NCBI GenBank assembly: GCA_965248535.1
Contig: CBDFJR010000005.1
Coordinates: forward strand, 1,184,001-1,248,000
DNA: 64,000 nt
Source: Phormidesmis sp.
GTDB taxonomy: Bacteria; Cyanobacteriota; Cyanobacteriia; Leptolyngbyales; Leptolyngbyaceae
Direction of reading: 5' to 3'
Positions 33,332 to 49,612 of this stretch are shown in pieces. The translations under genes were made by a program, and so were the position numbers. The first letter of the stretch is position 1. Every line of letters starts with the position of its first letter. The notes under the pieces are model-generated. The model made no database searches. It saw nothing but the letters and a program-made list of their open reading frames with translations, and had not been told where the DNA came from.

Positions 33332-33353
33332 CAGCGATAATTGGATGAAATAT

Positions 33354-33633: not shown

Positions 33634-33669
33634 AATCTTTCCAAGTTCTTGACATTTGTTATTTAAAGT
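33634..33669 (+). promoter_or_regulatory. Regulon box 1 plus -10
   Basis: AATCTTTCCAAGTTCTTGAC-N10-TAAAGT. Confidence 0.8.
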
Positions 33670-33927
33670 AAAACATGAGGTGAATTTGTGGTGATGACGA
33701 ACACAACAATTTGCAATACTGCTTGACAGTGGGAAATTCATCTAATCATCTTATGCTGACATGATAACTCTGCGATCTCTGAATTTTTCACAGGCAGTAT
33801 CAGCAATCATGTAATTCACCAGGCAAATTTCTCTATTTTAGTTGTGAAAAATCATGAATCTGTAGGTACAAGTAAAAGTCAGGAACTGGAATGAAAAATT
33901 TTCAAAAAATCAAGCAGGAAAAATATC

Positions 33928-34695
33928 ATGAGAAGAGTGTTAAACAGGGTTCCAGAAGTTACAGGTTCCTTCTGGATTGTTAAAGTTCTGGCAACCACGG
34001 TGGGTGAAACTGCGGCTGATTTTCTATCAGTAAATTTAAACCTTGGTTTAAGCGTTACATCGTATGTTATGAGTGGCGTATTGCTGATTGCGCTTCTGAA
34101 TCAGTTTAGGCTCAAACGGTATGTCCCAGTGAGCTACTGGATTGTAGTTGTTTTGATGAGTATTACTGGCACACTGATTACTGACAGACTGGTAGATAAT
34201 TTTGGAGTTAGTTTCATGACAACTACTGTCATTTTTAGTGTTGCCTTGACAGCAGTTTTTGCACTCTGGTATTTAAACGAAAAGACATTAGCGATGCACT
34301 CCATCAACACCGCTAAAAGAGAGTTGTTCTATTGGGCAGCTATCTTATTTACGTTTGCCTTGGGCACGGCAACAGGAGACCTTCTAGCGGAGGCTTCGGG
34401 TCTAGGTTATGCACAATCAGTTCTAGTGTTTGGCGCTTTAATTGCGATCGTAGCGATTAGTTATTATTACTTTCGGCTGAATGCAGTCTTGGCATTTTGG
34501 ATAGCTTACATCTTGACTCGCCCACTTGGAGCATCTATGGGAGATTTATTATCCCAACCTACGACAATGGGTGGTTTTGGTTTGGGTACAGTTAAAACTA
34601 GTATGCTCTTTCTTTCCATAATCGTGAGCTTGATCATTTACTTAAGCCTTAAGCAGAAGAAGCCAGTCGCACTGTCCATCGATCAACAAGATTAA
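33928..34695 (+). CDS. COG4705/DUF347 membrane protein
   Basis: RVPEVT..FWIVKVLATTVGETAAD, ELFYWAAIL.TFALGT, YILTRPLGA. Confidence 0.88.
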   Translation: MRRVLNRVPEVTGSFWIVKVLATTVGETAADFLSVNLNLGLSVTSYVMSGVLLIALLNQFRLKRYVPVSYWIVVVLMSITGTLITDRLVDNFGVSFMTTTVIFSVALTAVFALWYLNEKTLAMHSINTAKRELFYWAAILFTFALGTATGDLLAEASGLGYAQSVLVFGALIAIVAISYYYFRLNAVLAFWIAYILTRPLGASMGDLLSQPTTMGGFGLGTVKTSMLFLSIIVSLIIYLSLKQKKPVALSIDQQD

Positions 34696-34855
34696 TGAAT
34701 GAGCGATCCAGCGGTGACGATTTGCCCCATTGTTCAGCAGAGATCTTGAATCGATACTACGTCTATTGCTCGATTCCAGAAGTGATAAGCTTGCTCGTAG
34801 TAGTGCCGACAAATATCTGCTTGAGTAAGACAGTCATGTTTTCGGGTCGAGATCG

Positions 34856-36037
34856 ATGAAACCTCAACTTCTCAGAAACTTGCCCCGTAACGTTTGGATT
34901 CTGGGCTTTGTGAGTTTACTCACTGATGTCAGTTCCGAGATGATTCACTCGGTGCTGCCGTTGTTTCTCGTTTCAACGTTGGGAGCGAGTGTAGCTACAG
35001 TTGGACTGATTGAAGGGGTTGCCGAGGCAACGGCTTCAGTGCTGAAAGTCTTTTCAGGCGCATTAAGTGATTACTGGGGACAGCGGAAAGGATTAGCGAT
35101 CGCTGGATACGGACTATCGACGCTTGTTAAGCCACTGTTTGCGATCGCGACCAGTCCTGCTTGGGTTTTGTTGGCTCGATTTTCCGATCGAGTGGGTAAA
35201 GGAATTCGAGTCGCTCCGCGTGATGCCCTAGTCGCAGATGTAACGGCTCCTAGCGATCTCGGTGCAGCCTATGGATTGCGTCAGTCGCTCGATACGATCG
35301 GCGCATTTCTCGGCCCCTTAATTGCCTTTGCGTTGCTATCTCTATCCGCGCAGAATTTTCGGCTGGTTTTTTGGGTAGCACTGTTGCCGGGAGTGTTGGC
35401 AGTTGCTCTACTCGCAGTTGGAGTCCAGGAACCCAAAGCGCCGATTCGGGCGAAGCAAAACCCGCTACGATGGTCGGCGCTCAAAAGTTTGAGTCGAAGA
35501 TACTGGTGGTTGGTTGGCGTTGCCCTACTCTTCAATTTGGGAAACTCCAGCGATGCCTTTTTGCTGCTTCGAGCGAAACAGGTCGGAATTGCAGATCCTC
35601 TGATTCCTTTATCTTTAGTGGTGATGAATGTAGCGTATTCGTTGAGTGCTTATCCGATCGGGTTACTCTCCGATCGCGTGGGTCGGATGGGGCTTTTAGT
35701 CGGTGGATTCTCACTCTATGCGCTGACTTATTTGGGATTTGGGTTTGTCCAAGCGCCTTGGCAAATTTGGGGGCTGTTTGCGCTCTATGGGTTGCATCTG
35801 GGAATGAGTCAAGGGTTGCTGCTGGCGATCGTCGCTGACACGATTCCCAGTGCTCTACGCGGCACTGCCTTTGGACTGATTAATCTCGTGACTGGAATCG
35901 CGCTTTTACCTGCGAGTTTACTCGCAGGATTTTTGTGGCAAAGTGTCAGTCCGCAGGCAACTTTTTTAGTAGGAAGTTTATTTGCGATCGCGGCGATTTT
36001 CCTTCTTTTGGCAATCCCTCGCGATAATGTGGATTGA
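34856..36037 (+). CDS. MFS transporter
   Basis: DVSSEMI, GALSDYWGQRK, DRVGKGIR.APRDAL; about 12 TM helices. Confidence 0.92.
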   Translation: MKPQLLRNLPRNVWILGFVSLLTDVSSEMIHSVLPLFLVSTLGASVATVGLIEGVAEATASVLKVFSGALSDYWGQRKGLAIAGYGLSTLVKPLFAIATSPAWVLLARFSDRVGKGIRVAPRDALVADVTAPSDLGAAYGLRQSLDTIGAFLGPLIAFALLSLSAQNFRLVFWVALLPGVLAVALLAVGVQEPKAPIRAKQNPLRWSALKSLSRRYWWLVGVALLFNLGNSSDAFLLLRAKQVGIADPLIPLSLVVMNVAYSLSAYPIGLLSDRVGRMGLLVGGFSLYALTYLGFGFVQAPWQIWGLFALYGLHLGMSQGLLLAIVADTIPSALRGTAFGLINLVTGIALLPASLLAGFLWQSVSPQATFLVGSLFAIAAIFLLLAIPRDNVD

Positions 36038-36061
36038 AGCCTGAGTAATCTAGCAACACTG

Positions 36062-36736
36062 ATGAGAATTTTATTAGTTGAAGACGATCACCGAATTGCG
36101 AAGCCTTTAGCAGAAGATCTGCGACATCAGCACCATGTTGTAGACATTGCGAAAGATGGTTTAGAGGGATGGGAAGCGTCTCAGTTGGTTGCTTATGACC
36201 TGATTTTACTGGACTTAATGTTACCGAAGCTGGACGGCGTTAGCCTGTGTAAACGGTTGCGAACTGCCAAATCCCAAGCCCTAATTCTGATGCTAACAGC
36301 ACGCGACACGACGGGCGATAAAATCATTGGATTGGATGCCGGAGCCGATGATTATTTGGTTAAGCCCTTTGAACTAGATGAATTAGCCGCAAGAATTCGG
36401 GCGTTGTCACGACGAAGTTCAGAAGTCAAACCCTCAACTTTGATTCATGGTCAATTAGAAATTGATCCAAGTACTTACCATGTCACATATGGAGGCGTGC
36501 CTGTATCACTAACGCCTAGAGAATATATGATTCTGGAGTGTTTTTTACGAACTCCTAGTCAGGTTTTAACTCGTTCAGCCATCCTAGACAAGCTGTGGGA
36601 GTTTGATAAATCTTCGGGAGAAGAAACGATTAAAACTCATATTACGAACTTGCGTCGCAAGCTGAAAGTCGCTGGGAGTCCAGAGGATTTTATCGAAACG
36701 GTGTATGGTCTCGGTTATCGACTTCATTCTGTTTAA
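36062..36736 (+). CDS. OmpR-family response regulator
   Basis: LLVEDD, ILLDLMLP, DDYLVKPF, winged helix IETVYGLGYR. Confidence 0.95.
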   Translation: MRILLVEDDHRIAKPLAEDLRHQHHVVDIAKDGLEGWEASQLVAYDLILLDLMLPKLDGVSLCKRLRTAKSQALILMLTARDTTGDKIIGLDAGADDYLVKPFELDELAARIRALSRRSSEVKPSTLIHGQLEIDPSTYHVTYGGVPVSLTPREYMILECFLRTPSQVLTRSAILDKLWEFDKSSGEETIKTHITNLRRKLKVAGSPEDFIETVYGLGYRLHSV

Positions 36737-38151
36737 CCAGTGGTGGGTTTGGGAGGCGATAGGTTCCACGCTCTATGCGAAGCATGAGCGCCCCTGATAC
36801 ATGGACATCCCAAGCGCCTGAGCGAAGCGAAGAAGCCCTCTCTCAGAGCATTTAACAGAATGCCTAAATTTGTTAAATTATTGGAATGTTGAGTCTGACC
36901 TACAGCTACCGAATTTATCCAGACCTCACCCAATCAGCCGAAATGCTGTCTTGGTTGGAGCAATGTAGAAAGGTCTACAACTATGCTTTGCAAGAGCGCA
37001 AGGACTGGATCAATTCGCGTAAATGTGCGGTCAACGCTTGCAGCATCAGAGCAGAATACATCCTTCCCGCAGACGTACCCTACCCCGATTACTACAAGCA
37101 GCAGAACGCGTTGACTCAAGCCAAGAACGAGATTCCTGAACTCAAACAAGTTCAGTCTCAAGTGCTGCAAGACGCGCTGCGCCGAGTCGATAAAGCCTTC
37201 AAGTTCATGAAAGAGCGGGATTTTGGGTTCCCACGCTTCAAGAAGTTTGGGCAGTATCGCTCGGTTGTGTTTCCGCAATTCAAAGCGAATCCCCTGAGCA
37301 GGAACTGCATCAAGTTGCCGAAGCTTGGGGACATCCCGATCAATCTGCACCGCCCGATTCCCGATGGATTCGAGGTGAAGCAGGTCAGAGTGGTGAAGAA
37401 AGCGTCGCGCTGGTACGCCCAATTGATTCTGCAATGCAATGTTCAAGTGCCCGACATCCTGCCCCATGGTGAACCCATCGGCATTGATTTGGGACTGGAA
37501 AAGTTCTTGGCGGTTTCGACCGGAGCGTTGATTCAACGACCCCGCTTTTTTGTGGACTTGCAAGGCAAGCTGAAATGGCTGCAACGCAAGTTAAGAAACA
37601 AAAAGAAGGGTTCTGCGAATTACCGGAAAGCCCAAGCCAAGATTCGCACTCTGCACGAACACATTCACGACACCAGGCGAGAGTTCCACTTTCAAACGGC
37701 TCACCAGCTTTGTGATCAAGTCGGGATGATCTTTGCTGAAGACCTCAACTTCAAAATGATGAGTCGAGGGATGTTGGCAAAGCATTGTTTGGACGCTGCG
37801 TGGGGGAGCTTCCTCGACATCCTCAAATGGGTGAGTTGGAAGCGAGGGGTGTTCTTTGCCAAGGTAGACCCCAACGGGACAAGTCAAACTTGCCCCAACT
37901 GTGGAGCGCAGACCGGAAAGAAAGAACTGAGTCAGCGTGTGCATGAGTGTGGTGAGTGTGGATATGTCACTGACCGAGATGTAGCTGCCGCCCAAGTGGT
38001 GATGCAGCGTGGACTTGTAGCCGTTGGGCAAACGGTGATACTGCCTGTGGAGGAAGGTTGCTTGGGAACCCCGATGAAGCAGGAAAGCTCGGTTGCGAAG
38101 CCGAGAAGCCAGCGCGCTATTGCGAAGCAATGAGCGTCTGGAGAATGTCAC
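36737..38151 (+). mobile_element. IS200/IS605-family non-autonomous element (tnpB only)
   Basis: Follows TTTAA (36732-36736); related subterminal hairpins at 36769-36790 and 38113-38136 (TGC-GAA-GCA core); right end TCAC 38148-38151; no tnpA. Confidence 0.8.
36886..38133 (+). CDS. tnpB: RNA-guided endonuclease TnpB
   Basis: YSYRIYP, RuvC-I GIDLG, RuvC-II FAEDL, Zn finger CPNC/CGEC, RuvC-III DRDVAAA. Confidence 0.95.
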   Translation: MLSLTYSYRIYPDLTQSAEMLSWLEQCRKVYNYALQERKDWINSRKCAVNACSIRAEYILPADVPYPDYYKQQNALTQAKNEIPELKQVQSQVLQDALRRVDKAFKFMKERDFGFPRFKKFGQYRSVVFPQFKANPLSRNCIKLPKLGDIPINLHRPIPDGFEVKQVRVVKKASRWYAQLILQCNVQVPDILPHGEPIGIDLGLEKFLAVSTGALIQRPRFFVDLQGKLKWLQRKLRNKKKGSANYRKAQAKIRTLHEHIHDTRREFHFQTAHQLCDQVGMIFAEDLNFKMMSRGMLAKHCLDAAWGSFLDILKWVSWKRGVFFAKVDPNGTSQTCPNCGAQTGKKELSQRVHECGECGYVTDRDVAAAQVVMQRGLVAVGQTVILPVEEGCLGTPMKQESSVAKPRSQRAIAKQ

Positions 38152-38157
38152 CTCAGT

Positions 38158-38193
38158 AATCTTTTCAAGTTCTTGACATTGTTTCTCTACGAT
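38158..38193 (+). promoter_or_regulatory. Regulon box 2 plus -10
   Basis: AATCTTTTCAAGTTCTTGAC-N10-TACGAT upstream of uppP. Confidence 0.8.
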
Positions 38194-38222
38194 AAGAGCG
38201 TTGTTTTAACTCTCGGCGTAGA

Positions 38223-39116
38223 ATGATTTCTTACCTTATGGTCACTTCCGCTTGTTCGAGCGATGTTGATTTGGGATTTGTGCAACTCGGCTGGTTTAAG
38301 GTCATGATCTTGGGCATTGTTCAAGGCATTACTGAGCTACTGCCAATTAGTAGTACGGCTCATCTGCGAATTGTTCCAGGTTTGCTGGGATGGCAAGATC
38401 CAGGCAGCGCCTTTAGTGCTGCGATGCAGTTAGCTAGTCTGACGGCGGTTGTCACTTATTTCTGGAAAGACCTTAACCGTATGACTGGCGCAACCATTCG
38501 AGCCATTGCACAACAAGACTATCAGGATCAAGATTTTCGACTCGCGATCGGGCTACTCGTTGGAACCATTCCCATTGGAATTACTGGGTTGCTGCTGAAA
38601 AAAACGCTCAATGCCTGTAATTCTCCGTTTCGCGCCCTTACCGTCGTTGGGATTGCATCGATCGTCATGGCTCTGTTACTGGCAATCGCAGAGAAACGCG
38701 GCAAGCGAAATCGGGAGTTCAATAAACTTTCGATGCAAGACGGAATTTGGGTAGGTCTTGCTCAAGCTTTGGCGCTCATTCCTGGAGTCTCTCGTTCTGG
38801 CTCGACGCTCACCGCAGGACTTTTCTTAGAAATGGATCGTGAAACGGCTGCCAGATTTTCCTTTTTACTCGGATTGCCAGCCATCATTTTAGCAGGCGCA
38901 CTCGAACTGCATACACTATTCAAAGCTGGGCTTGACCTCTATGGGTGGATGATTCTACTGGTCGGACTGGTTACAGCTAGTCTTTCTGCATTTGCTGCAA
39001 TTTACGGACTCCTTCACTATTTAGAAAAACGCTCTACCTGGGTATTTGTTTGGTATCGTCTGATTATGGGTGTATTCCTACTCGTCGGAGTTAGTGCGGG
39101 ATTTCTTCGCAATTAG
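38223..39116 (+). CDS. uppP: Undecaprenyl-diphosphate phosphatase (BacA/UppP)
   Basis: GIVQGITELLPISSTAH, PGVSRSGST, AARFSFLL. Confidence 0.95.
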   Translation: MISYLMVTSACSSDVDLGFVQLGWFKVMILGIVQGITELLPISSTAHLRIVPGLLGWQDPGSAFSAAMQLASLTAVVTYFWKDLNRMTGATIRAIAQQDYQDQDFRLAIGLLVGTIPIGITGLLLKKTLNACNSPFRALTVVGIASIVMALLLAIAEKRGKRNREFNKLSMQDGIWVGLAQALALIPGVSRSGSTLTAGLFLEMDRETAARFSFLLGLPAIILAGALELHTLFKAGLDLYGWMILLVGLVTASLSAFAAIYGLLHYLEKRSTWVFVWYRLIMGVFLLVGVSAGFLRN

Positions 39117-39157
39117 TTACCCTTAGTGTTAGCTGTTCTCTATTGCCTTCAGCATTT

Positions 39158-40405
39158 GTGTTTAAGCAGATTCAGTATCGCTTGTTGGTTTCCTACCTCA
39201 TCGTTTTCACAGCGATTTTAGGAACGTTTGCGATCGCTGTTCGCATTGTTTACGGGTATAGTCTGAAGCAGCAACTCACCGACAAACTCGTCGCATTAGG
39301 ACAAGGAGCAGTATCCAGCGCAGACGTAAATAACGGTCGGCTCGAAGTCGGGCATGACATTTCTGCTCAAGATTTAATTACGCGGGGTCAAGCACTGCAA
39401 TGGTTTGATCTTCAGGGTCGATTGATGACTCAGCAAGGAAAAACGGTGACGACCTTACCGTTTTCGAGCAGTGAAACTTCTCAAGTTCAGAGATCACACC
39501 CTCGTATCCAATCGATCACGTTACCCATTGTCAGCAGCGACAATCAACACCGCTTTGGATATGTTAGAGCGAGTCAATCTCTCGAAGAATTAGATGAAAA
39601 TCTGCGAAAGCTCGACTGGGGTTTAGGAAGTGGAATTGTGATGGCACTGATTCTCAGCGGTATTGGAGGGGTTTGGTTAACTCGCCAAGCCATGCAGCCG
39701 ATCGAGGAAAGTTTTGAGCGTCTGAAACAATTTACGGCGGATGCGTCCCATGAATTACGAAGTCCGTTGATGGTCATTAAAAGCAATGTATCTGTCGCTC
39801 TAAAATATTCAGATGGGATGCGCCCAACTGATGCCGAAAAGTTTGATGCGATCGCGAGTGCGACTCATCAAATGACTCACCTCACCGAAGACTTATTGTT
39901 ACTAGCGCGGACTGATAAGGTAGCAGTTCCAGATCGACAACCTGTTAATTTAACCCAAGTTTTAGAGCAGATAGTTGAGTTATACCAGCCTCAGGCCCAG
40001 ACCAAGCAAATCAGCCTGCAAGCTCACCTTGCTCAGTCTGCTTTTGTGCTAGGTGACTCAGCACAACTGATTCGATTGTTCATAAATCTAATTGTGAATG
40101 CTTTGCACTACACTCTAGAGCGAGGAAAGGTCGAGGTAAAGTTAAATCGAACTGGGCAAAGCCTTGTGGTTGACGTGAGCGATACGGGAGTCGGAATTGC
40201 TCCAGAACATCTAGCGCGGGTGTTTGACCGATTTTGGCGGGCGGATCAGTCGCGCTCTCATGAGGATGGCGGGTCTGGGTTAGGACTCGCGATCGCGCAA
40301 TCGATCGCTCAAAGTCATGGCGGGACAATCAGCGTCAGTAGTCAGGTTGGGGTTGGCACTTGTTTCACCGTGCAGTTGCCTCTCTTAACAAGACTATTTC
40401 CCTGA
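39158..40405 (+). CDS. Sensor histidine kinase (probable partner of the regulator at 36062)
   Basis: Two TM helices, ADASHELRSPL, DTGVGI, GSGLGLAI; GTG start preferred over TTG 39143. Confidence 0.92.
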   Translation: MFKQIQYRLLVSYLIVFTAILGTFAIAVRIVYGYSLKQQLTDKLVALGQGAVSSADVNNGRLEVGHDISAQDLITRGQALQWFDLQGRLMTQQGKTVTTLPFSSSETSQVQRSHPRIQSITLPIVSSDNQHRFGYVRASQSLEELDENLRKLDWGLGSGIVMALILSGIGGVWLTRQAMQPIEESFERLKQFTADASHELRSPLMVIKSNVSVALKYSDGMRPTDAEKFDAIASATHQMTHLTEDLLLLARTDKVAVPDRQPVNLTQVLEQIVELYQPQAQTKQISLQAHLAQSAFVLGDSAQLIRLFINLIVNALHYTLERGKVEVKLNRTGQSLVVDVSDTGVGIAPEHLARVFDRFWRADQSRSHEDGGSGLGLAIAQSIAQSHGGTISVSSQVGVGTCFTVQLPLLTRLFP

Positions 40406-40426
40406 TTGCCAGTCCAGTGCGACTAA

Positions 40427-41290
40427 TTATGGTACTTTCTCTAGTAGAACAAACCCAGTATATTGTGTGATGGTTTGCCAATATCGTCTAGCAAAACAGC
40501 GGATTAAAATTTCAGCAACTCCGACTAAGTGGGTTTGCCGATTGCAAAGACAAGCCGCTTGCCAAATCGATCGAAACTCCTTCACTCTCCAGCCATAGGG
40601 TCGAAAAAAATCTGTGCCCTCATCAGGAGCAAACAAAAAGGTTGCCTTCCCATTCGCGAAGTATTGGTCAAATAGCCTTTGTCGGTCAGATTTTTGAGCC
40701 TGCTGTAATATCATCGACGAGGCTAACTCAAACATCCACCAGCGAAAATTCGATTGCTGATGTAAATCGGCTGCAAGAGATGCAACTTGTGCTTCAGTCA
40801 GATAAGACAACAAACCTTCTGTAATCACAAGAGCTTGGTTTGCCGAGGCGTTGACCTGTGCAAACAGATTTTTTCTCAAGGCGACATCAGTAAGGTCTAG
40901 CTTGATTCGTTCTACCCAACAAACGGGCTGTTCGCTCTTCAGTATCTGCTCTTTGTGCGTCAGAATGCCTGGGAAATCAACCTCAATCCAGCGCAGGGAA
41001 GCCGGAAGATTTAACCGATAGGGACGGGTATCTAATCCAGCCGCTAGGTTTAGAACAGTGTCAACGCTGCCTGATTCTACAAGGCGTGTGATCATCCCAT
41101 CGATCGTGCAGGTGCGAATTGCCATTGCAGCGATTCCTTGTTGTTTCTCCCCCAGCACTTCAACCATCATTGCTCCTTCTCCGCCGGCCAAGCGACGCGC
41201 AAATAGATCTTGAAACAGTGCATCTGGACGTTCACTTTCTAAGGCGCGATACATAGCAACTAAGTGGGCCGTTGCAGAAATATTATTCAT
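40427..41290 (-). CDS. SAM-dependent methyltransferase (LCM/O-methyltransferase-like)
   Basis: RALESERPDALFQD, LAAGLDTRPYRL, WIEVD, ITEGLLSYL. Confidence 0.9.
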   Translation of the reverse strand: MNNISATAHLVAMYRALESERPDALFQDLFARRLAGGEGAMMVEVLGEKQQGIAAMAIRTCTIDGMITRLVESGSVDTVLNLAAGLDTRPYRLNLPASLRWIEVDFPGILTHKEQILKSEQPVCWVERIKLDLTDVALRKNLFAQVNASANQALVITEGLLSYLTEAQVASLAADLHQQSNFRWWMFELASSMILQQAQKSDRQRLFDQYFANGKATFLFAPDEGTDFFRPYGWRVKEFRSIWQAACLCNRQTHLVGVAEILIRCFARRYWQTITQYTGFVLLEKVP

Positions 41291-41673
41291 AGTTCATCAG
41301 AATCAGCAAAGTCCGAGAGTGCAAAAATTGGCTTGCGATAAGCGAGATACCGAAACTCCGATTCTTGAAAATGCTGCTTTACAACTTTTAATCCCTGCGA
41401 TCGTAGTATCGGAGCCATCTGTTCTGCTACATTAAAGAACAGTGGCTGCCATCCGTAGGCTTCAGTAAAGGTTAGAAACTCATACAGCGCCACTATAATC
41501 TGTGAATTGCGCCCTTTGAAGTTTTCGCCAGAAATGCTCACCACGAGCCGCTGAAATGCCTCAAAAACAGTTTGTTCATGAATCGCTCGGAGATGTTCAG
41601 ACTGCTCGATTGCCAAGATAGTGTAGCTAATAGAAGGAGATATGTATGCTCTATTATTCCTACAGAATCGCAT
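41287..41673 (-). CDS. Hypothetical protein resembling a fragment of an MprF cytoplasmic domain
   Basis: EF..F.EAYGWQPLFFNV...GLKVVK resembles FQQFCDLNDWYAAFYEV...GLRSLQ in the gene at 47736; start uncertain. Confidence 0.4.
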   Translation of the reverse strand: MRFCRNNRAYISPSISYTILAIEQSEHLRAIHEQTVFEAFQRLVVSISGENFKGRNSQIIVALYEFLTFTEAYGWQPLFFNVAEQMAPILRSQGLKVVKQHFQESEFRYLAYRKPIFALSDFADSDEL

Positions 41674-41795
41674 CTGGTGATCAACGAAAATCTGTGAAAT
41701 TACTTCTATAGTCAATAGATTGTTCGCATTCTGCTTTGACAGTTCTGTTGAAGCGACTAACGGTCGGCGAGTTATTGAAGTATTTATCAATTTAG

Positions 41796-41954
41796 TCACG
41801 GAAACCTTGCCTGCTGGCAAGTTGAATAATCAGGATCACACGAACGACTCATTGTCACAACAAGGTTGATCAGCATTGCTGCAAAGACTATTGTTGCTAG
41901 GCTAATTATCAGGATCTGAAACACCAGTTTGAGCGGGTAATATTTTCCGTCCAT
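41796..41954 (-). CDS. 52-aa single-pass membrane protein (not in ORF track)
   Basis: MDGKYYPLKLVFQILIISLATIVFAAMLINLVVTMSRSCDPDYSTCQQARFP; lies downstream of box 3. Confidence 0.5.
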   Translation of the reverse strand: MDGKYYPLKLVFQILIISLATIVFAAMLINLVVTMSRSCDPDYSTCQQARFP

Positions 41955-42113
41955 TTTCTTCTTCTGCTTGCTTCAGCGGTTATCATGCTTGCGTTAGTCC
42001 ATGGGTGTTACTGAGCTAGAAACTTACAGTGCGTATTTTGTACCGTTAAGGTCGAGATCTTGAAAAGGTTGTCTGCCAAAAAACTTTATAGTGTATGGAA
42101 GTTTGAAACCAAC

Positions 42114-42149
42114 ATTCTAAAGGGTAAAAGTCAAGAACTCGGAAAGATT
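42114..42149 (-). promoter_or_regulatory. Regulon box 3 plus -10
   Basis: Minus strand AATCTTTCCGAGTTCTTGAC-N10-TAGAAT. Confidence 0.8.
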
Positions 42150-42271
42150 CAGTGATCTGCAATGTTTTTGAAGAAAAGCTATAAAAAGACTAACTTTTCT
42201 GCTCTCCTGAGTATTAGATGATAAGCAAAGTCTATAAGCCTTCTAGCAAGGGTTCTATGCTCTAGACAACA

Positions 42272-42313
42272 CTAATTTTGTAGTTGATAATATGGTTTCA
42301 ACTACAAAATTAG
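42272..42313. repeat. Perfect 16-bp inverted repeat with 10-nt loop
   Basis: CTAATTTTGTAGTTGA-N10-TCAACTACAAAATTAG. Confidence 0.85.
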
Positions 42314-42363
42314 GAGAGCCACTTTTCTCGTGCTAAGACTCCTTATTCCTCACAATTCTAGTC

Positions 42364-42399
42364 AATCTTTCCGAGTTCTTGACTTTTTTCATCTATTTT
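42364..42399 (+). promoter_or_regulatory. Regulon box 4 plus -10
   Basis: AATCTTTCCGAGTTCTTGAC-N10-TATTTT. Confidence 0.8.
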
Positions 42400-42468
42400 A
42401 AGAAAGCATCGCTTCGATAAAAGGATTTTAGTCGATCCCAGCCTCTTATTCCTTTGCTTTGTATTCCT

Positions 42469-43629
42469 ATGCCCCTTGGGTCAATCCGTTCGGTCTCACC
42501 TTTTTTGGTACTTGACCGATACATTGCATCTCAATTAGCAAGTCCCTTTTTGTTTGGCGTTGCAGCATTGTCTTCAATTCTGGTGTCAGTTGGCGCACTC
42601 TTCGATCTGATTCGCAAAATGACGGATGCTGGGCTACCTCTGTCGATCGCGTTCAAAGTCTTTTCCTTCCAAGTGCCTGAATTCGTCAGCTTGTCGTTTC
42701 CAATGGCAACGCTGCTATCAACGTTGATGGTGTATGGTCGTCTTTCGACCGACAGCGAACTAATCGCGCTTCGCAGCGCTGGCATTAGTGTTTACCGACT
42801 AATTGCACCCGCGATCGTGTTGAGCTTGTTGGTGTCAGCTTTAACGTTTGGGTTCAACGAAGCGATCGTTCCTGCGGCTAAGTATCAAGCATCTGTCACG
42901 CTGGATAGTGCCTTGAAGCGGGATAAACCTGCGTTCCAGCAGAATAATATTGTTTATCAACAGTATGGCGACGTAAAGCAAGCTGATGGTAGCAAGGTGC
43001 AAGTTTTAGAGCGAATTTTCTATGCAAAACAGTTCGATGGTAAGCAAATGAAAAGTCTGACTGTGTTAGATTTTTCCCAAAATGGACTCTGCCAGATCAT
43101 TACTGCCCAAACTGCGACGTGGAATACCTCTCGCAGCACCTGGGATTTCTTTAATGGCACGATTTATGTAATTGCACCCGATGGGTCTTATCGCAATATT
43201 CTTAAGTTTGAACAGCAGCAACTACAGCTTTCTCGGACTCCGTTAGATCTTGCCAGTCGGCAACCAGATGAAGGTGAGATGAATATTGAGCAGATTCAGA
43301 ATTATCTCAAGTTGGTCAAGCAAAGTGGAGACGAGAAACTTGTGATCAAATTACGTTTACGGATTCAGCAGAAAATAGCGTTTCCGTTGGTCTGTCTAGT
43401 TTTTGGTTTAACAGGCGCAACACTCGGCACTCGCCCTCAACGCGGCGGTAAAGGAACTAGCTTTGCCATTAGTATCGTAATCATTTTCACGTACTATTTA
43501 CTTTCATTTATCTGTGACTCATTTGGGCAACTTGAGATTTTATCTCCTGTTATTGGAGCTTGGTTGCCTACGATCGCAGGATTACTGGCAAGAGCGTTTC
43601 TTTTATTGCGGGCAGAAGAGTACCGCTGA
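42469..43629 (+). CDS. LptF/LptG-family permease
   Basis: LDRYI, YGRLSTDSELIALRSAGIS, beta-jellyroll region, GAWLP; start uncertain. Confidence 0.9.
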   Translation: MPLGSIRSVSPFLVLDRYIASQLASPFLFGVAALSSILVSVGALFDLIRKMTDAGLPLSIAFKVFSFQVPEFVSLSFPMATLLSTLMVYGRLSTDSELIALRSAGISVYRLIAPAIVLSLLVSALTFGFNEAIVPAAKYQASVTLDSALKRDKPAFQQNNIVYQQYGDVKQADGSKVQVLERIFYAKQFDGKQMKSLTVLDFSQNGLCQIITAQTATWNTSRSTWDFFNGTIYVIAPDGSYRNILKFEQQQLQLSRTPLDLASRQPDEGEMNIEQIQNYLKLVKQSGDEKLVIKLRLRIQQKIAFPLVCLVFGLTGATLGTRPQRGGKGTSFAISIVIIFTYYLLSFICDSFGQLEILSPVIGAWLPTIAGLLARAFLLLRAEEYR

Positions 43630-43770
43630 ATTTGATAACAAGATTCTGTCTAGAGTTGAATTAGGGTTCGAGGCTCAAAACCAATTCAAATTTTGGTCGA
43701 AGTATGGTGTTGTCACAATACGATAGAAATTATCATCCTAACTTAGGGCATTAAGGACTATTCAGCATCA

Positions 43771-45453
43771 ATGAAATATAAAATCATACCAAAAAATCTA
43801 ACACTAAAGTTGTTCTCATTATTCAAGAACATTCCACTCACAAAACCAGACTCAAACCTGAGAACAATATTGATACTGGCATCAATATTTTTTGTTTTCA
43901 TGGTCGTTTTCTCACTCAATCGCTACTACAGTTTTTACTCATCCTACGATCAAGGACTTTTTAACCAGTTGTTTTGGAATGGTCTCCGTGGACATTTGTT
44001 TCAAGGCTCTCTTTCCTCTGGTCAATCAAGCGCTGTTCTAGATGATGGTCAAATAGCTACAGCATCTTACTACCATTTGGGACAACACTTTGTTCTTGAC
44101 TTTTTGCTTTGGCTACCGATATATGCTCTATTTCCTAACGGTGCTACTTTAGTGATTTTACAAATCACATTAGTTACGGCAGCAGGAATGGTCTTGTTCG
44201 CTCTAGCTCGTCATTATCTCCCTTTCTCGATCGCTGTTTTAATGACTGCTAGTTTTTACGGCTCTATCGCTGTGATGGCACCGTCATTGGGTAATTTTTA
44301 TGAGGCTTGCCAGATTCCTCTATTCGTATTCAGTTTACTACTTGCTTTAGCAAAACGTAGATGGCGATTGTTTTGGCTCTTTGTTGCTTTGACATTAGGA
44401 ATTCGAGAAGACACAGGGTTTATCATCTTTAGCATTGGTGCCTACTTAATTTTAATCCGTCGCTATTTTCGCTTAGGCTTGGCTTTATGCCTATTAAGTT
44501 TTAGCTATATTGCTCTAGTAACAAACGTATTAATGCCGTTGTTTTCTAATGATAGTTCCCGTCTATACGTAAAAAGTTACTTTCACCAGTATGCTCAGTA
44601 TGTTCAAGGAGGTACTCCTACTACTCTGCAACTTCTCTGGAGCATCATCAGTCACCCTAAAGAACTGGCAGTGAGTTTATTGACTCCCTTCGATCGGCGG
44701 GTAGAGTACCTTTCACTTCAATGGCTCCCTTTGGCATTTGTCCCTGCGCTCTCTCCTGCAACTTGGGTACTGACAGCCTTTCCATTACTGGAACTGTTGC
44801 TTCAAAAAAGTGATAAAGCGCTTTCCATCAATATCCGCTATGCATTGAACGTCGTTCCCGGACTGTTTTATGGTGCAATTCTGTGGTGGGCAAACCATCA
44901 ACATCAATTTAGACCACGCTTTCGTCGATTTTGGAGAGGATGTATCGCCTTGTCTATCCTTCTAGCAATTACGACAAATGGACAAGGAGCTTTCTACTTT
45001 TTAATTCCAGATTTTGGTCACCCTGCACTCTATATTTCTCTCAGTCGCCAATGGGAACATGCAAGCCAGGTCAAGGCATTAATGAACTTGATTCCGCCGC
45101 AAGCTAGCGTCTCAGCGACCGCCTTTCTGATTCCGTATCTGTCAGGTCGGCGAGAGATTATAGAACTAGCGAATGAGCGCTTGCCGTCTCTGATGATCCG
45201 CAATGACAAAGGAGAAATAAATCCTGTTGACTATATCTTAGCTGACTTATGGCGGCTGCAACGGTACCAAGTCGTCAGAAAACCTGATCGGCAGAGACTT
45301 CAAGCGCTTGTCCCTCTACTAGATACACTTATTGCTCAACAAAAGTATGGCATTCTGAATATACAAGACAAGGTTGTTCTCTTACAGAAAGCAACGACAT
45401 CTTCCCCTCAAGCTCAGACTGATTGGTTAAAGTTGCGTTCAGAATTAAAATAA
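43771..45453 (+). CDS. DUF2079 multi-pass membrane protein
   Basis: SYDQGLFNQLFWN, LGQHF, IREDTG, INIRYAL. Confidence 0.8.
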   Translation: MKYKIIPKNLTLKLFSLFKNIPLTKPDSNLRTILILASIFFVFMVVFSLNRYYSFYSSYDQGLFNQLFWNGLRGHLFQGSLSSGQSSAVLDDGQIATASYYHLGQHFVLDFLLWLPIYALFPNGATLVILQITLVTAAGMVLFALARHYLPFSIAVLMTASFYGSIAVMAPSLGNFYEACQIPLFVFSLLLALAKRRWRLFWLFVALTLGIREDTGFIIFSIGAYLILIRRYFRLGLALCLLSFSYIALVTNVLMPLFSNDSSRLYVKSYFHQYAQYVQGGTPTTLQLLWSIISHPKELAVSLLTPFDRRVEYLSLQWLPLAFVPALSPATWVLTAFPLLELLLQKSDKALSINIRYALNVVPGLFYGAILWWANHQHQFRPRFRRFWRGCIALSILLAITTNGQGAFYFLIPDFGHPALYISLSRQWEHASQVKALMNLIPPQASVSATAFLIPYLSGRREIIELANERLPSLMIRNDKGEINPVDYILADLWRLQRYQVVRKPDRQRLQALVPLLDTLIAQQKYGILNIQDKVVLLQKATTSSPQAQTDWLKLRSELK

Positions 45454-45455
45454 AA

Positions 45456-45653
45456 ACATTAGACCTCCTGTGTGAATCTTTTTGCCCTCACTCTACCCTC
45501 GCTCCTTAGAAGAAGGAACAAGAACTCTAGCCCTTCTCTTTTGGGAGAAGGGTTGGGGATGAAGGTCTTAACTATTCGTACAGAAGACATCATGAATGCG
45601 CGATCGCTCTCACAACCCCGGATGAAAATCTATTTCCAAAGGAGGTCTAATGT
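45456..45653. mobile_element. MITE-like element (198 bp)
   Basis: Perfect 14-bp terminal IR ACATTAGACCTCCT/AGGAGGTCTAATGT; internal hairpin CCCTTCTC-TTTTGG-GAGAAGGG. Confidence 0.75.
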
Positions 45654-45716
45654 AATTGTCATTGGGTCAATGTAATTGCGCTCTATAGTTTTCTACTACC
45701 GTATACTGTTCTCTGC

Positions 45717-46526
45717 TTAGTGTCCCTGTCTTGCTGGCTTCTGCGGAAAGAGCAAGATCCCCAACACGATTAACACTAGCAGGGTTGCCGATGCCGAGTA
45801 GCGGCTTAACTCTAAGCCACCTTTGCTGACGGGTTTGTCTAAAAAGTCACCGACGACTGCGCCCAGCGGCCGAGTCAAGATAAAGGCTGCCCAAAATAGC
45901 GCCGTGCTAGATATTCGTGTTCGGTAGTACGCCGCCGCGATCGCTGCCAGCATCGTCCCAAACACGAGGGCACTTCCCAAATACCCAAGACCCTGGGTAT
46001 CGGCTGTCCAATCGCCCAGCGCCGTCCCTAAGGTTTGCGAAAACATAATCGTGACCCAATAGAATATCTCAGATCTGGGCGACCCCACTGTGTGAACCGC
46101 GATCGACCCCAGCGTGCGATACCACAAGAATAGAGATGCCAAGAGCAAGGTCAGCAAGATTGCCGTACCGCCCGCATAGCCAATGCCCAGAGAACGATCT
46201 ACAAAATCTGCCAGGGTTGTGCCCACGGTTGTAGTGGCGATAATCGTCGTCCAGTACAGGATGGGATTGAATTTCTTCGCGAGAACCTGAGCGATGACTG
46301 CAACGGCAAAGATAACGACGAAGATCCCAGTACTGGTGAGATAGCCAAGATTCATGGACATAGACACAGCATCTCCGCCCGTCTCACCCAGAGTTGTGGC
46401 AAGAATCTTGATGATCCAGAAAAGCAAGGTGACTTGCGGAACCTTGCTGATCAGATCACCCCGGAAGCGTTCATCTGATTGTTGAGATGCCGTCATTCGA
46501 TACTCCTTATGCGGTTGATTTGCCAT
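45717..46526 (-). CDS. Second COG4705/DUF347 membrane protein
   Basis: SKVPQVTLLFWIIKILATTLGETGGD, FILTRPLGA. Confidence 0.88.
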   Translation of the reverse strand: MANQPHKEYRMTASQQSDERFRGDLISKVPQVTLLFWIIKILATTLGETGGDAVSMSMNLGYLTSTGIFVVIFAVAVIAQVLAKKFNPILYWTTIIATTTVGTTLADFVDRSLGIGYAGGTAILLTLLLASLFLWYRTLGSIAVHTVGSPRSEIFYWVTIMFSQTLGTALGDWTADTQGLGYLGSALVFGTMLAAIAAAYYRTRISSTALFWAAFILTRPLGAVVGDFLDKPVSKGGLELSRYSASATLLVLIVLGILLFPQKPARQGH

Positions 46527-46628
46527 AATCGAAAATTGAAATTAACAACGCTTGTAAGGCTTAGACGGATTTGCATTGCAAGTCGTTCATTCCCTTGAGC
46601 AACTGTATCTGAACCTGTGACTTTGCAT

Positions 46629-46664
46629 AGATTAGCGAGAGAAAGTCAAGAACTTGGAAAGATT
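46629..46664 (-). promoter_or_regulatory. Regulon box 5 plus -10
   Basis: Minus strand AATCTTTCCAAGTTCTTGAC-N10-TAATCT. Confidence 0.8.
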
Positions 46665-46695
46665 AGTGAATGACTTTGCTGCTGTGCCGAGTCAG

Positions 46696-46732
46696 AAAAA
46701 TCCCCTCAATTTCCTGATCAAAAATTGAGGGG
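46696..46732 (-). terminator. Intrinsic terminator after the PepSY gene
   Basis: CCCCTCAATTT/AAATTGAGGGG stem with a T-run on the minus strand. Confidence 0.65.
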
Positions 46733-46823
46733 TCAAACTGCTACAAGCTTGCAGTCAACGTTAGATCAGCACTACCTATCCTTGTCAAAGGAGGATTACA
46801 AGACTCGATCGATAGCTTTTTTA

Positions 46824-47409
46824 TCAGCCATCGTCATTGGTTTCACCATCCGTTTGAGGAACCTGGATGCTGCTACGAGGTTGAGTCTTCTCGTTGTTCT
46901 CCCTGGTTGGCGTGTTTGTACCGAGAACTCTACCGTTGCCTGCATCTACGATCACTTCATTCTGTGTCCTACGGAGTTGCGCGGAGCGCTAATCACAACG
47001 CATAAACTAAGCTGCCGTTTTCACTTTCTAGCTTGACATTGCTGGCAGTTCCTTTGACAGTGGCTTCAGCCGCTTGCTGTGCCTGCTGAGACGTGATTTT
47101 AGCCAAGGATTGCAGTTTTTGAGATTCCTGCTGTTCCTTCACGTCGTCATTGGTTTCACCATCTCCGTCACTCGCTTCTGCCTTTTGAGTCGGTTTGTTT
47201 GCTTGAAGTTGAGACTTAAGAGCGTTTTCTGGTGCTTCTGTCGCAGGATTGGCTTCGCTATCTCCGTCACTCTTTTCGGTGACTTGAGCAGCGGGCATGA
47301 CTGCAACAGGAGATTGCATCTGAGCTGCGTTAACCAGTTTAGCTAGACCGCCGAGTCCTAATGTTCCGATCGCAGCAGCCGTCAAAATGAGTTTTGTTGA
47401 AGTTTTCAT
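46824..47409 (-). pseudogene. Secreted PepSY-domain protein, frameshifted near 46965-47000
   Basis: Signal peptide, LAKITSQQAQQAA..VKLESENGSLVY; continuation QNEVIVDAGNGRVL...DGETNDDG* in another frame. Confidence 0.8.
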
Positions 47410-47444
47410 CGAGTCAAATCCACCTAATATCGGTTTGCCATTTC

Positions 47445-47480
47445 ACTGTATGCACTGAAAGTCAAGAACTTGGAAAGATT
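47445..47480 (-). promoter_or_regulatory. Regulon box 6 plus -10
   Basis: Minus strand AATCTTTCCAAGTTCTTGAC-N10-TACAGT. Confidence 0.8.
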
Positions 47481-47627
47481 GGAGTCAAGCTAAAAAAGTT
47501 GTGGCTCCTCATGATTACTCTGCTTTTCAAGCAATCATTGAAGCGCTCTGAGATCAAGTTAATAGAAGGTGAGATCAACAAAGCCAACGGTTGGTGAATC
47601 ACGCCGGAATAATTCTTCACAAGTGCA

Positions 47628-47663
47628 AATCTTTCCAAGTTCTTAACGTTTGCTTTCTACACT
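47628..47663 (+). promoter_or_regulatory. Regulon box 7 plus -10
   Basis: AATCTTTCCAAGTTCTTAAC-N10-TACACT. Confidence 0.8.
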
Positions 47664-47735
47664 TCAAAAAGTAAGCTTGAGTAATTCTCTAAGCCTTGCA
47701 ATGACAGAAAAATAAGCCCAAGAGCAAGGTCAAAA

Positions 47736-49424
47736 ATGGCGTTAACACGACGAGACCAGATTGGACTGTGGACAGCCACGCTCCTCACGAGTTTGACTGG
47801 AATTGCTAATCTAATCTCTGCGGTTACGCCCAGCTTGCCAGAGCGAATCGAGTGGCTCAGGAAAATTTTTCCGTTTCCAGTACGAGCGGGTGGACACTTT
47901 TTTGCTGCCATTAGTGGATTTATCTTGCTCACACTCGCGGCTCACCTACTGCGACGCAAGCGGGTAGCGTGGTTACTGACCGTTGGTCTGCTGGTCATCT
48001 CCATCTTAAGCAACCTGATTAAAGGGTTCGACTACGAGGAAGGATTATTGTCAGGAGTGCTGCTGCTTCAGTTGATTTTGATGAGGCGTGTCTTTACCGC
48101 ACAGTCAGACCAACCTTCGATCGCCCAAGGCATTAGAGTCTTGGTTGGTGCGCTCTTGTTTACCTTGGCTTATGGAACACTGGGATTCTACATTCTGGAT
48201 GGACGGTTTACGATCGATCAACAGTTTGTCAATTTTGGCTTTAGGCAGGCACTTTTGCAGACATTAGCCATGTTTTTTACAGGAGACAATGCAGGTCTAG
48301 AAGCGAAAACCCGATTTGGTCAATTTTTTGCTGATTCTATTTACATGGTTGGTGCGACCACGTTGGGCTATGCATTGTTTATGCTGCTGCGGCCTGTGTT
48401 GCTCCGAGGCGATCCGTCTAAGACATCTGAGTGGGAGCGTGCGAGAGCGATCGTGGATCAGCATGGGCAAACCTCGCTCGCTCGACTGGCACTGTTGGAA
48501 GATAAAGCCTATTACTTTAGCCCGTCAGGTCAAACGGTCATTGCTTATGTCGCAAAAGGACGAGCCGCAATCGCGTTAGGTGATCCGATTGGTTCAGTTG
48601 AAGATCGACAAGAAGCGATTGTTAGCTTTCAGCAATTTTGCGATCTCAATGACTGGTATGCAGCATTTTACGAGGTTCCGCCTGATCAACTTGACCTCTA
48701 CACTTCTCTCGGTTTGCGATCGCTGCAAGTTGGTGAAGAGGCAATTATCAATCTCAAAACGTTTTCACTAAAGGGAAAAGCAAACCAAAATTTGAGAACG
48801 GCTGTTAACCGTCTCACAAAGATAAGATATACGGCTCAGGTTTATGCTCCTCCGATCTCAGACACGTTGCTCCGTCAACTCAAGCCCGTGAGTGATGAAT
48901 GGTTGCAGCACAAACAAGGGGCGGAAAAGCAATTCTCGATCGGTTGGTTTGATCCAGACTACCTACGAGAGTGCTTCATTGGAGTTGTTTTTGATGCAGA
49001 GTATCAGATTATTGCTTTTGTCAATTTGCTGTCAAACTACCATCAGCCAGAAGTAACCGTTGACCTGATGCGGCATCGCCAGGAGGTTCCCAATGGAACA
49101 ATGGACTTCCTGTTTGTTTCACTCTTGCAGCACTTTCAGCAGCTTGACTATGATGGCTTTAATTTCAGTCTTTCCCCGCTAGCAGGGGTTGGAGAAGCAC
49201 CCAATTCCCAACGGACTGAGAAGGCATTGCACTATCTCTCAACGCACTTGAATCAGTTTTACAACTTTCAGGGGTTACGTGAGTTTAAGGAGAAATTCCA
49301 ACCTCAGTGGGAACCTCGCTATCTTGTCTATCCGAGCCTGTCCGCATTACCGGATATCGTGGTCGGGCTGGTGAGAGCCGATTCGGGCGATCGCTGGCTC
49401 GATTATTTCAAACCTGACGCTTAA
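47736..49424 (+). CDS. MprF/LpiA-like aminoacyl-phosphatidylglycerol synthase (short form, about 6 TM plus DUF2156)
   Basis: LLRRKRVAW, ALGDPIG, VGEEA, VDLMRH..PNGTMDFLF, YNFQGLREFKEKFQPQWEPRYL. Confidence 0.9.
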   Translation: MALTRRDQIGLWTATLLTSLTGIANLISAVTPSLPERIEWLRKIFPFPVRAGGHFFAAISGFILLTLAAHLLRRKRVAWLLTVGLLVISILSNLIKGFDYEEGLLSGVLLLQLILMRRVFTAQSDQPSIAQGIRVLVGALLFTLAYGTLGFYILDGRFTIDQQFVNFGFRQALLQTLAMFFTGDNAGLEAKTRFGQFFADSIYMVGATTLGYALFMLLRPVLLRGDPSKTSEWERARAIVDQHGQTSLARLALLEDKAYYFSPSGQTVIAYVAKGRAAIALGDPIGSVEDRQEAIVSFQQFCDLNDWYAAFYEVPPDQLDLYTSLGLRSLQVGEEAIINLKTFSLKGKANQNLRTAVNRLTKIRYTAQVYAPPISDTLLRQLKPVSDEWLQHKQGAEKQFSIGWFDPDYLRECFIGVVFDAEYQIIAFVNLLSNYHQPEVTVDLMRHRQEVPNGTMDFLFVSLLQHFQQLDYDGFNFSLSPLAGVGEAPNSQRTEKALHYLSTHLNQFYNFQGLREFKEKFQPQWEPRYLVYPSLSALPDIVVGLVRADSGDRWLDYFKPDA

Positions 49425-49445
49425 AGTCATGCTGAACTCCTACAC

Positions 49446-49521
49446 AAAAAATCCCAGCTAAAGCCGGGAAGTAAAGGTGAGAGGATAAATCTACAATAGT
49501 TAAAATTGAAAGACTTCCTCT
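49446..49521 (-). ncRNA. Candidate small RNA (about 76 nt)
   Basis: Lies between the box-8 promoter and a GC hairpin plus T6 terminator; no ATG; folds into a 5' hairpin. Confidence 0.5.
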
Positions 49522-49527
49522 AAAAAG

Positions 49528-49563
49528 AGTGTAGTAGAAGAAAGTCAAGAACTTGGAAAGATT
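49528..49563 (-). promoter_or_regulatory. Regulon box 8 plus -10
   Basis: Minus strand AATCTTTCCAAGTTCTTGAC-N10-TACACT. Confidence 0.8.
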
Positions 49564-49576
49564 GGCTGGTTTTACG

Positions 49577-49612
49577 GTTCTTTTCAACTTCTTGACGTTT
49601 GTTCGATACATT
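49577..49612 (+). promoter_or_regulatory. Regulon box 9 plus -10
   Basis: GTTCTTTTCAACTTCTTGAC-N10-TACATT. Confidence 0.75.

Follow-up and report, generated by a model that had tools for sequence, protein, structure and literature searches.

A 64,000-nucleotide stretch of Phormidesmis sp. (C5:1184001-1248000 of a 5.03 Mb genome; hereafter the window) contains an island of envelope genes with nine promoters that share a 20-bp box. We found that these promoters belong to a real, conserved and mobile two-component regulon of familiar mechanism, whose site is apparently undescribed: a preliminary description of this DNA had not recognized the motif as a described cyanobacterial box, and our literature search, the scope of which excluded subscription journals, supplements and RegPrecise, found no description of the site or the regulon either. 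Judged from the sequences, the box is most likely an OmpR/PhoB-type site read by the local response regulator (the gene at 36062), and PhoB-type activation of the box promoters by this regulator and the sensor kinase at 39143 is, taken as a whole, a probable reading. The features of the island are listed in Table 1.

Within the window, the box was found where it had been reported, with eight matches at up to three mismatches (four exact, four with one mismatch), and no match at this level appeared in any of 100 shuffles. The ninth copy, at 49577 on the plus strand, has the four mismatches attributed to it and scored 29.3 with the weight matrix described below. All window boxes are intergenic and all nine are followed by TAnnnT exactly 10 bp later, both as previously described. 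The transcription starts predicted from these -10 elements are near 33676, 38200, 42107, 42406, 46622, 47438, 47670, 49521 and 49619 for boxes 1-9, respectively. The reported 11-bp direct-repeat period was correct as well and extends to a 22-bp site, TCTTTCC-RAGT/TCTTGAC-WTTT; in the 84 sites from other genomes analyzed below (loci L021-L095), T occupied box positions 22-24 in 72, 81 and 70 cases, respectively. A weak tenth copy (42051-42070, minus strand; four mismatches, CAAAAT at +10, score 10.9) is located 79 bases downstream of box 3.

In the whole genome, nine sites had at most two mismatches, namely eight in the window and one at C5:2317944 (minus strand), which is one member of a second, paralogous box 8/9 pair. 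With a weight matrix for which 174 sites from other genomes served as the training set, 11 sites scored 14 or more, that is, the nine window boxes and the paralogous pair. Scatter of the motif across the genome, which the preliminary description had named as grounds for giving up the idea, was therefore not observed; the suggested scan of the genome and its relatives showed a box that is confined in its own genome and conserved across many cyanobacteria. The paralogous copy (L001:9770-10720, about C5:2317770-2318720) is set among copper- and zinc-type ATPases 1.1 Mb from the island and comprises an intact PAP2 gene with its own box (L001:10043-10720), a degenerate version of the small RNA and a short remnant of the 3' end of mprF. 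It may represent a tenth regulated promoter; the -10 element on its small-RNA side is decayed.

To extend these observations to other genomes, the box alone was scanned in one genome per species. This gave 97 stretches, nearly all of which were cyanobacterial by record title (six were titled as other taxa and six only as 'uncultured bacterium'). Loci L021-L095 contained 89 distinct sites, five of which were in records with non-cyanobacterial titles and were set aside, leaving 84 sites selected on the box alone. TAnnnT was present at exactly +10 in 77 of these 84 sites (next best offset, 16 of 84) and at offsets 17-19 in none of them, so the possibility that the box end serves as a normal -35 element was rejected. 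A -10 at +10 was also observed in 15 of 18 further sites from the last 17 loci and in 44 of 56 sites from new metagenome contexts. None of six viral box matches had a -10, several of the metagenome misses share the viral context, and these viral-context matches are a chance family. Two of the five sites set aside also had TAnnnT at +10. The correct box and -10 were seen in L033 and L058, records titled Tatlockia and Melioribacteraceae; L033, which bears the regulator and DUF347 (the full cyanobacterial set), is probably a misbinned contig.

These data also bear on the idea that a mobile repeat, or a site of recombination, underlies the box and that its -10 match is a by-product. In favor of this idea, the island has a mosaic, rearranged structure, and units of a box and its gene have been shuffled from locus to locus. 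However, the flanks are free around the box in the sequence logo (no more than 0.5 bit of information upstream), whereas the -10 is conserved; the boxes point into gene starts, most of them 20-250 bases away; and the six viral matches and the gut-contig matches, which have no gene context, have no -10 either. A mobile repeat thus appears extremely improbable. A promoter that is so sharply defined and transferable could possibly be used as an inducible part or a metal biosensor.

We then analyzed the relationship between the box and the regulator in a sample of 301 cyanobacterial genomes. The box plus -10 (at most two mismatches) was present in 34 genomes and a control pattern in 2. The regulator, counted as present at E values of 1e-90 or lower (this cut-off was chosen after the search, where the scores showed a gap), was found in 41 genomes, or about one in seven of those sampled, which makes the distribution of the regulator/kinase pair patchy. 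The box occurred in 25 of the 41 genomes with the regulator and in 9 of the 260 without it, related genomes not being independent in this comparison. For 12 of the 16 genomes with the regulator only, regions of 16-17 kb were fetched, and 11 of these carry weaker, matrix-level boxes with the -10 in place. In a quick tree of 87 regulators, 60 sequences with at least 61% identity formed one side of a branch (SH-aLRT 99), and most of them share a near-constant recognition helix, (I/V)KTH(I/L/M)TNLR. A box was located within 4 kb of 49 of these 60 close regulators as compared with 7 of the 27 others (many loci having been fetched through the box), and within 4 kb of none of the 14 regulator paralogues in the own genome. 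The earlier assignment of the box to OmpR/PhoB-type activator sites is thus supported by the 11-bp repeats at the -35 position and by their co-occurrence with this regulator clade. The parts are those of a two-component system: a regulator with receiver and winged-helix domains, a membrane kinase, and 11-bp direct repeats at a fixed distance before the -10. For a clade of cyanobacterial two-component systems that is unstudied, the analysis supplies the site together with its regulator and targets. Two small genomes have DUF347 beside a more distant regulator (53-55% identity) and no strict box (G270:C17:16376-19055 and G342:C19:4170-6858), possibly a sister system with another site.

Several observations weigh against this assignment. 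Genome G515 has eight matrix-level boxes as well as DUF347, PepSY and PAP2, and homology queries found neither the regulator nor the kinase in it; in eight other box-only genomes, no kinase was found with more than 43% identity over a long match. G479 has the regulator/kinase pair and no box in 17 kb. Boxes were located within 500 bp of 10 and within 3 kb of 26 of the 63 regulator homologues, many of these loci being short. Counts of boxes near genes are inflated because the box was the means by which most loci were retrieved, and related genomes are not independent. Finally, the periplasmic domain of the kinase showed no invariant acidic or histidine metal site among 21 sequences.

On such grounds, the box might be read by another factor, for example, a conserved chromosomal regulator or a Nostocales sigma factor, the local pair being a mere member of the regulon. 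Nine of the 34 box genomes, including G515, had no regulator in homology searches, a sigma-70 family gene recurs in eight loci, and the box ends in TTGAC(A/T), resembling a -35 hexamer. On the other hand, only 9 bases separate this TTGAC(A/T) from the -10, and a -10 at normal spacing was not seen. The box is absent from 251 of the 260 regulator-less genomes, though these keep the common regulators, and in the own genome, boxes are restricted to the island and its paralogous copy. In addition, a disrupted fragment of the regulator is present next to the boxes of G597, so some of the regulator-less box genomes can be explained by loss. Another reader of the box therefore seems quite improbable.

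In the mechanism that we propose, the 22-bp tandem site of two 11-bp repeats would be the target of one clade of cyanobacterial OmpR/PhoB-type regulators, represented here by the 36062 gene. A periplasmic signal would cause the kinase to phosphorylate the regulator, a head-to-tail dimer of which would occupy positions from about -42 to -21, where a -35 element would otherwise lie, and recruit a sigma-70 type polymerase to the -10. This resembles the pho box of Escherichia coli, in which two 11-bp direct repeats about 10 bp before the -10 replace the -35 and are bound by a regulator of the same family. In contrast with PhoB, the half-site sequence is different and the targets are envelope genes rather than phosphate uptake; with the PhoB model, for which the cut-off is 296 bits, the regulator scored 179. 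It would switch on DUF347 proteins, a secreted acidic PepSY protein and the lipid-carrier phosphatases UppP and PAP2, and further targets would include varying surface-modifying enzymes and exporters and, in some lineages, a small RNA.

Alternatively, the phosphorylated regulator could sit on the -35 region and repress, and the signal would lift this repression, as for ManR at mntCAB. The box does cover the -35 position, many cyanobacterial promoters work from the -10 alone, and many homologues of the kinase carry the automatic JGI name 'manganese sensing'. ManR itself, an OmpR-type cyanobacterial regulator, is a repressor according to excerpts of PMC4361706. However, a repressor has no need for one-base-exact spacing and a single orientation, yet 77 of the 84 sites show them, and none of the nine box promoters was among the pairs found in a -35/-10 pair scan. 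Repression is thus unlikely in comparison with PhoB-type activation.

The preliminary description had placed both the regulator and the kinase behind boxes and proposed an autoregulated loop. Neither gene has a box of its own: the regulator comes third in DUF347-MFS-regulator, at a distance of 2.4 kb from box 1, and the kinase is the second gene behind box 2, after uppP. Since a TnpB element also lies between them, autoregulation would depend on read-through, by which both genes would be raised. The loop may therefore stand in an indirect form only, both genes being downstream operon members of boxes.

The nearest named relatives of the pair are CopRS, NrsRS (RppAB) and ManSR, all of which are metal-linked pairs that are often found on plasmids. 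RppA and RppB were the top NCBIfam matches of the regulator and kinase, yet both scores were below the cut-offs (231.6 bits against 250 and 284.1 bits against 400, respectively), the targets differ, and an annotated RppA (L164, 43% identity) fell in a separate clade of the quick tree. The CopR site, TTCAT-N4-5-TTCAT (excerpts of PMC4182526), is unlike the box, and the regulator reached 175 bits against TIGR01387 (cut-off 279). By cut-off, tree and site, the pair appears to be neither RppA/NrsR nor CopR. Membership in ManSR (Slr0640/Slr1837) seems unlikely; among the recurrent families scanned in the box loci, there was no manganese ABC transporter. A secreted PepSY protein also accompanies the pairs DbfQRS of Vibrio, BqsRS (with PA2658/9) of Pseudomonas, UipRS-UipA of Microbacterium and UrpRS and UzcRS of Caulobacter. 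DbfQRS regulates its own expression and responds to membrane damage (PMC12714742, excerpts, in which no mention of cyanobacteria was found). Unlike in these modules, the main co-targets here are DUF347 and the lipid-carrier phosphatases, and PepSY was found within four genes of the kinase or regulator in L047, L030, L118 and L162 and not in the window, where it is several genes off. The UppP and DUF347 families also occur together in lead-induced operons of Frankia, for which an export-and-precipitate system has been proposed; this system is actinobacterial, its function is a proposal there too, and no regulator or site is named in the excerpts of that paper (PMC4531530).

With regard to the content of the regulon, the first open reading frames (ORFs) behind 185 relaxed sites, a tally that includes the sites of the own genome and some shadow ORFs, encoded DUF347 (at least 27), PepSY (at least 26), an unnamed secreted family (at least 9), methyltransferase (at least 7), BamA (at least 6), PAP2, glycosyltransferase and DUF2808 (at least 5 each) and the regulator (at least 4), followed by a long tail; at least 13 sites had no ORF within 700 bases. 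A box was located within 500 bp of 27 of 27 homologues of PepSY, 42 of 74 of DUF347, 8 of 24 of PAP2 and 7 of 13 of the methyltransferase, and the corresponding numbers were 1 of 2 for UppP, 1 of 4 for MprF, 1 of 1 for LptF/G, 0 of 2 for DUF2079 and 0 of 6 for MFS. Of the 41 regulator-bearing genomes, 18 have DUF347, as compared with 7 of the 260 others. The conserved core thus appears to be DUF347, PepSY and a lipid-carrier phosphatase (PAP2 or UppP). The envelope-centered regulon proposed earlier is retained with this core (DUF347 being its COG4705), whereas LptF/G, DUF2079, MprF and MFS are rare add-ons according to the box-proximity counts. In this way, the orphan family DUF347, for which no paper on COG4705 was found in a literature search of the same scope as above, and several unnamed secreted proteins are tied to a defined stress response. 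In four Nostocales loci (L023, L038, L071 and L076), boxes precede an operon of signal peptidase I, a sigma-70 factor, TauE and DUF1634, so that a second regulatory layer may be part of the regulon in these loci. Boxes before BamA and an HpnI-type glycosyltransferase were seen in L021, L032, L046, L057, L050 and L059, and a squalene/phytoene synthase-like gene lies ahead of them in L050; a link to hopanoid modification is possible.

The preliminary description had suggested low pH, cationic or metal stress as the signal. Excess toxic metal cations at the envelope are our leading candidate, held with somewhat less than even confidence. We lean to metal excess over low pH because of the neighborhood, in which metal ATPases and exporters of the CDF or RND type lie next to the island and its relatives, and because UppP-DUF347 operons are lead-induced in Frankia (PMC4531530). 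The PepSY family here has acidic DGDGETNDD repeats and DUF347 has invariant acidic residues, both of which we count for a metal signal, and the PepSY protein UipA, which sits beside a two-component pair, binds uranyl (review PMC8963506, excerpts). General envelope damage or cationic peptides come next, as a possibility only a little weaker: MprF, UppP, BamA and glycosyltransferases among the targets fit such a signal too, the absence of an invariant acidic or histidine site from the kinase sensor domain counts in the same direction, and the PepSY-linked DbfQRS answers to lipopolysaccharide defects and polymyxin B, not iron (excerpts of PMC12714742). The two signals are not mutually exclusive. 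Low pH and any other signal are both unlikely, to a similar degree. A complex prediction of PepSY with the kinase sensor domain (L048 pair, with alignments) gave a score of 0.00 with an uncertain partner fold and counts neither way. A more speculative and rather doubtful proposal is a plasmid-spread toxic-cation sensor acting on three fronts from one box, in which PepSY and the phosphate released by UppP/PAP2 would trap metal outside, DUF347 would move metal, and a Yfr1-like RNA would take over repression of host porins. The membrane protein DUF347 has four repeats, conserved acidic residues (E27, D31, D86, D151 and D206 are invariant) and no clear fold match: Foldseek returned no match of the model at E 0.001, the best VIA Z was 7.9, to four-repeat channel pores and below the level that counts for helical bundles, and an Atlas search returned only DUF347 clusters.

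Box 8 faces the mprF 3' end and has no protein target. The sequence behind it suggests that it most likely drives a small RNA, the existence of which we consider likely. This candidate (Table 1) consists of a 5' hairpin, a CU-rich segment at 49475-49485 (UCCUCUCACCU), an intrinsic terminator stem (49452-49469) and a U tract; its fold z is -4.3, and the terminator is oriented for the minus strand. Of 381 distinct boxes, 11 are followed by the 3' module at a distance of 3-147 bases, in about seven independent sequence types, and the sole match without a box among all fetched loci was L166, which had been fetched by the module pattern itself. Pairing in the terminator stem is kept at one position as C-G, U-G and U-A (11 rows). 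When folded, 7 of 9 RNAs had z of -2.6 to -6.7, L024 had z -1.1 with an identical structure, and the decayed paralogous copy had z +1.5. In most candidates, only a few bases lie between the beginning of the 5' stem and the start that the -10 predicts, which agrees with the predicted start sites. That the RNA is a mere mprF terminator was rejected because the module occurs without adjacent mprF in L143 and L182, and one contig in public run X2 joins the PepSY promoter region to the RNA region without mprF. A strict pattern for the 3' module had no match in metagenome contigs. A looser one matched 5 of 301 genomes (three known sites and two without a box, L166 and L170; control, 1), and because so few genomes were matched, the RNA is regarded as an accessory rather than a core member. 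An Rfam scan of 33000-51700 gave no match, and three sub-threshold Rfam matches in five other loci were treated as chance.

The candidate RNA is similar to Yfr1/Yfr10 in that a 5' hairpin and a terminator enclose a CU-rich segment. The 11-nt conserved motif of Yfr1, ACUCCUCACAC, was not matched exactly, and only variants were seen (UCCUCUCACCU in the window and ACUCCUCAUACC in L172). The motif core, CCUC and UCCU, appears in excerpts of PMC6974561 and PMC6778093, according to which Yfr1 targets porin and envelope mRNAs. In contrast with Yfr1, which is nearly constitutive, the candidate is placed behind an inducible box; it also differs from Yfr1/Yfr10 in its variant motif, partly paired in the 5' stem, its 5' part of variable length and the lack of an Rfam match. 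Porins as its targets are a tentative suggestion. Nine porin start regions ranked high against 2966 other ORFs (area under the curve (AUC) 0.92, best ranks 4 and 13), yet 11 of 200 shuffled seeds equaled this result, and some of the seed bases are paired in the fold predicted for the RNA; with the seed of the genome's own Yfr1-like RNA, the AUC against porin start regions was 0.99. The separate Yfr1-like locus of this genome (C2:1224534) has its motif between two hairpins. If true, the candidate would be a two-component-controlled envelope small RNA in cyanobacteria, with parallels in MgrR and MicF of enterobacteria.

Table 1 Box promoters, genes and other features of the island in the window
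Feature	Position	Strand	Remarks
Box 1 and -10 (TAAAGT)	33634..33669	+	Predicted start about 33676; heads DUF347-MFS-regulator
DUF347 (COG4705) membrane protein	33928..34695	+	Four repeats, eight helices; PF03988 E 2.7e-60; model pLDDT 86.7
MFS transporter	34856..36037	+	Accessory; PF07690
OmpR/PhoB-family response regulator	36062..36736	+	PF00072 and PF00486; proposed reader of the box
TnpB element	36886..38133	+	Not a regulon member; NF040570; between regulator and box 2
Box 2 and -10 (TACGAT)	38158..38193	+	Heads uppP-kinase
UppP/BacA undecaprenyl-diphosphate phosphatase	38223..39116	+	NF001394 and TIGR00753 above cut-off; second copy in genome
Sensor histidine kinase	39143..40405	+	ArlS-type periplasmic domain; PF18719, PF00512, PF02518
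S-adenosylmethionine-dependent methyltransferase, LCM family	40427..41290	-	TIGR00027 above cut-off
177-aa ORF	41287..41820	-	No Pfam family; one homologue, likewise between box and methyltransferase
52-aa ORF	41796..41954	-	First ORF behind box 3; one hydrophobic stretch, two cysteines
Box 3 and -10 (TAGAAT)	42114..42149	-	Pattern match
Box 4 and -10 (TATTTT)	42364..42399	+	Heads lptF/G-DUF2079
LptF/LptG-family permease	42454..43629	+	Accessory; second copy, 69% to C2 copy
DUF2079 membrane protein	43771..45453	+	Accessory; second copy
Second DUF347 protein	45717..46526	-	PF03988 E 4.3e-64
Box 5 and -10 (TAATCT)	46629..46664	-	Pattern match
Secreted acidic PepSY protein	46824..47409	-	DGDGETNDD repeats; frame broken near 46993
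Box 6 and -10 (TACAGT)	47445..47480	-	Pattern match
Box 7 and -10 (TACACT)	47628..47663	+	Pattern match
Short MprF-type aminoacyl-phosphatidylglycerol synthase	47736..49424	+	Accessory; PF09924 E 4e-87; second copy, 66% to C2 copy
Candidate small RNA behind box 8	49445..49521	-	77 nt; predicted start 49521
Box 8 and -10 (TACACT)	49528..49563	-	Pattern match
Box 9 (four mismatches) and -10 (TACATT)	49577..49612	+	Back to back with box 8
PAP2 phosphatase remnant	49642..51039	+	Codons 1-78 only; split by IS4
IS4 transposase gene inside PAP2	49769-50830	-	NF033591

The gene names given in the preliminary description agreed with Pfam and NCBIfam, except that the PAP2-like gene is only a 5' remnant in the window. 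The uppP, mprF, lptF/G and DUF2079 genes are second copies of housekeeping genes. At the break in the PepSY frame, contigs of two public DNA runs (from one study) have five more bases, which turns the length difference to L024 into a multiple of three; the break is possibly an assembly error, and the idea that loss of PepSY makes the system constitutive was dropped on this account. A search of the PepSY protein against PDB sequences gave no match. Contigs in both runs also skip the IS4 element (window 49759-50910), which hints weakly at IS4-free alleles, the shorter side of the joints being just 21 letters long. The ends of the TnpB element match a second copy at C5:725484-726904, and the element is not at the corresponding place in L045/L115 and L114. 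The 52-aa ORF is weakly conserved (one partial homologue, L143, E 0.004), and the suggestion of an MgrB-like feedback peptide was dropped for this reason. A long leader before the first DUF347 gene (33767-33930) is 73% identical over 174 bases to that of the L069 DUF347 gene and showed no Rfam match and no clear ORF.

The mobility proposed for this system was supported by the presence of the kinase on 14 plasmids, all cyanobacterial (nine conjugative, three mobilizable), with boxes alongside; three annotated plasmid regions have matching partner genes and 5, 7 and 1 boxes. The clade is found on plasmids of Nostoc punctiforme PCC 73102, Chroococcidiopsis thermalis PCC 7203 and Tolypothrix PCC 7601, and given this and its occurrence in about one in seven genomes, the signal could be found with one reporter. 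Upstream in the window, ORFs named from sequence read as relaxase, actin-like protein, heavy-metal ATPase and CDF exporter, which suggests an integrated plasmid carrying the island within the large contig. This plasmid-like block (13462-24544) comprises relaxase-like, actin-like and small partner ORFs, followed by the heavy-metal ATPase and CDF exporter. Just before the island, a lipoprotein-like ORF with a 'sunset' domain (NF051437; 32470-32865) has no box. Behind the island, the region 51377-54578 contains a second two-component pair, whose regulator lacks the N-terminus and which has no box nearby, together with a short reductase-like fragment and an IS701-like transposase. Another kinase, with 35% identity, ends in the first ORF of the window.

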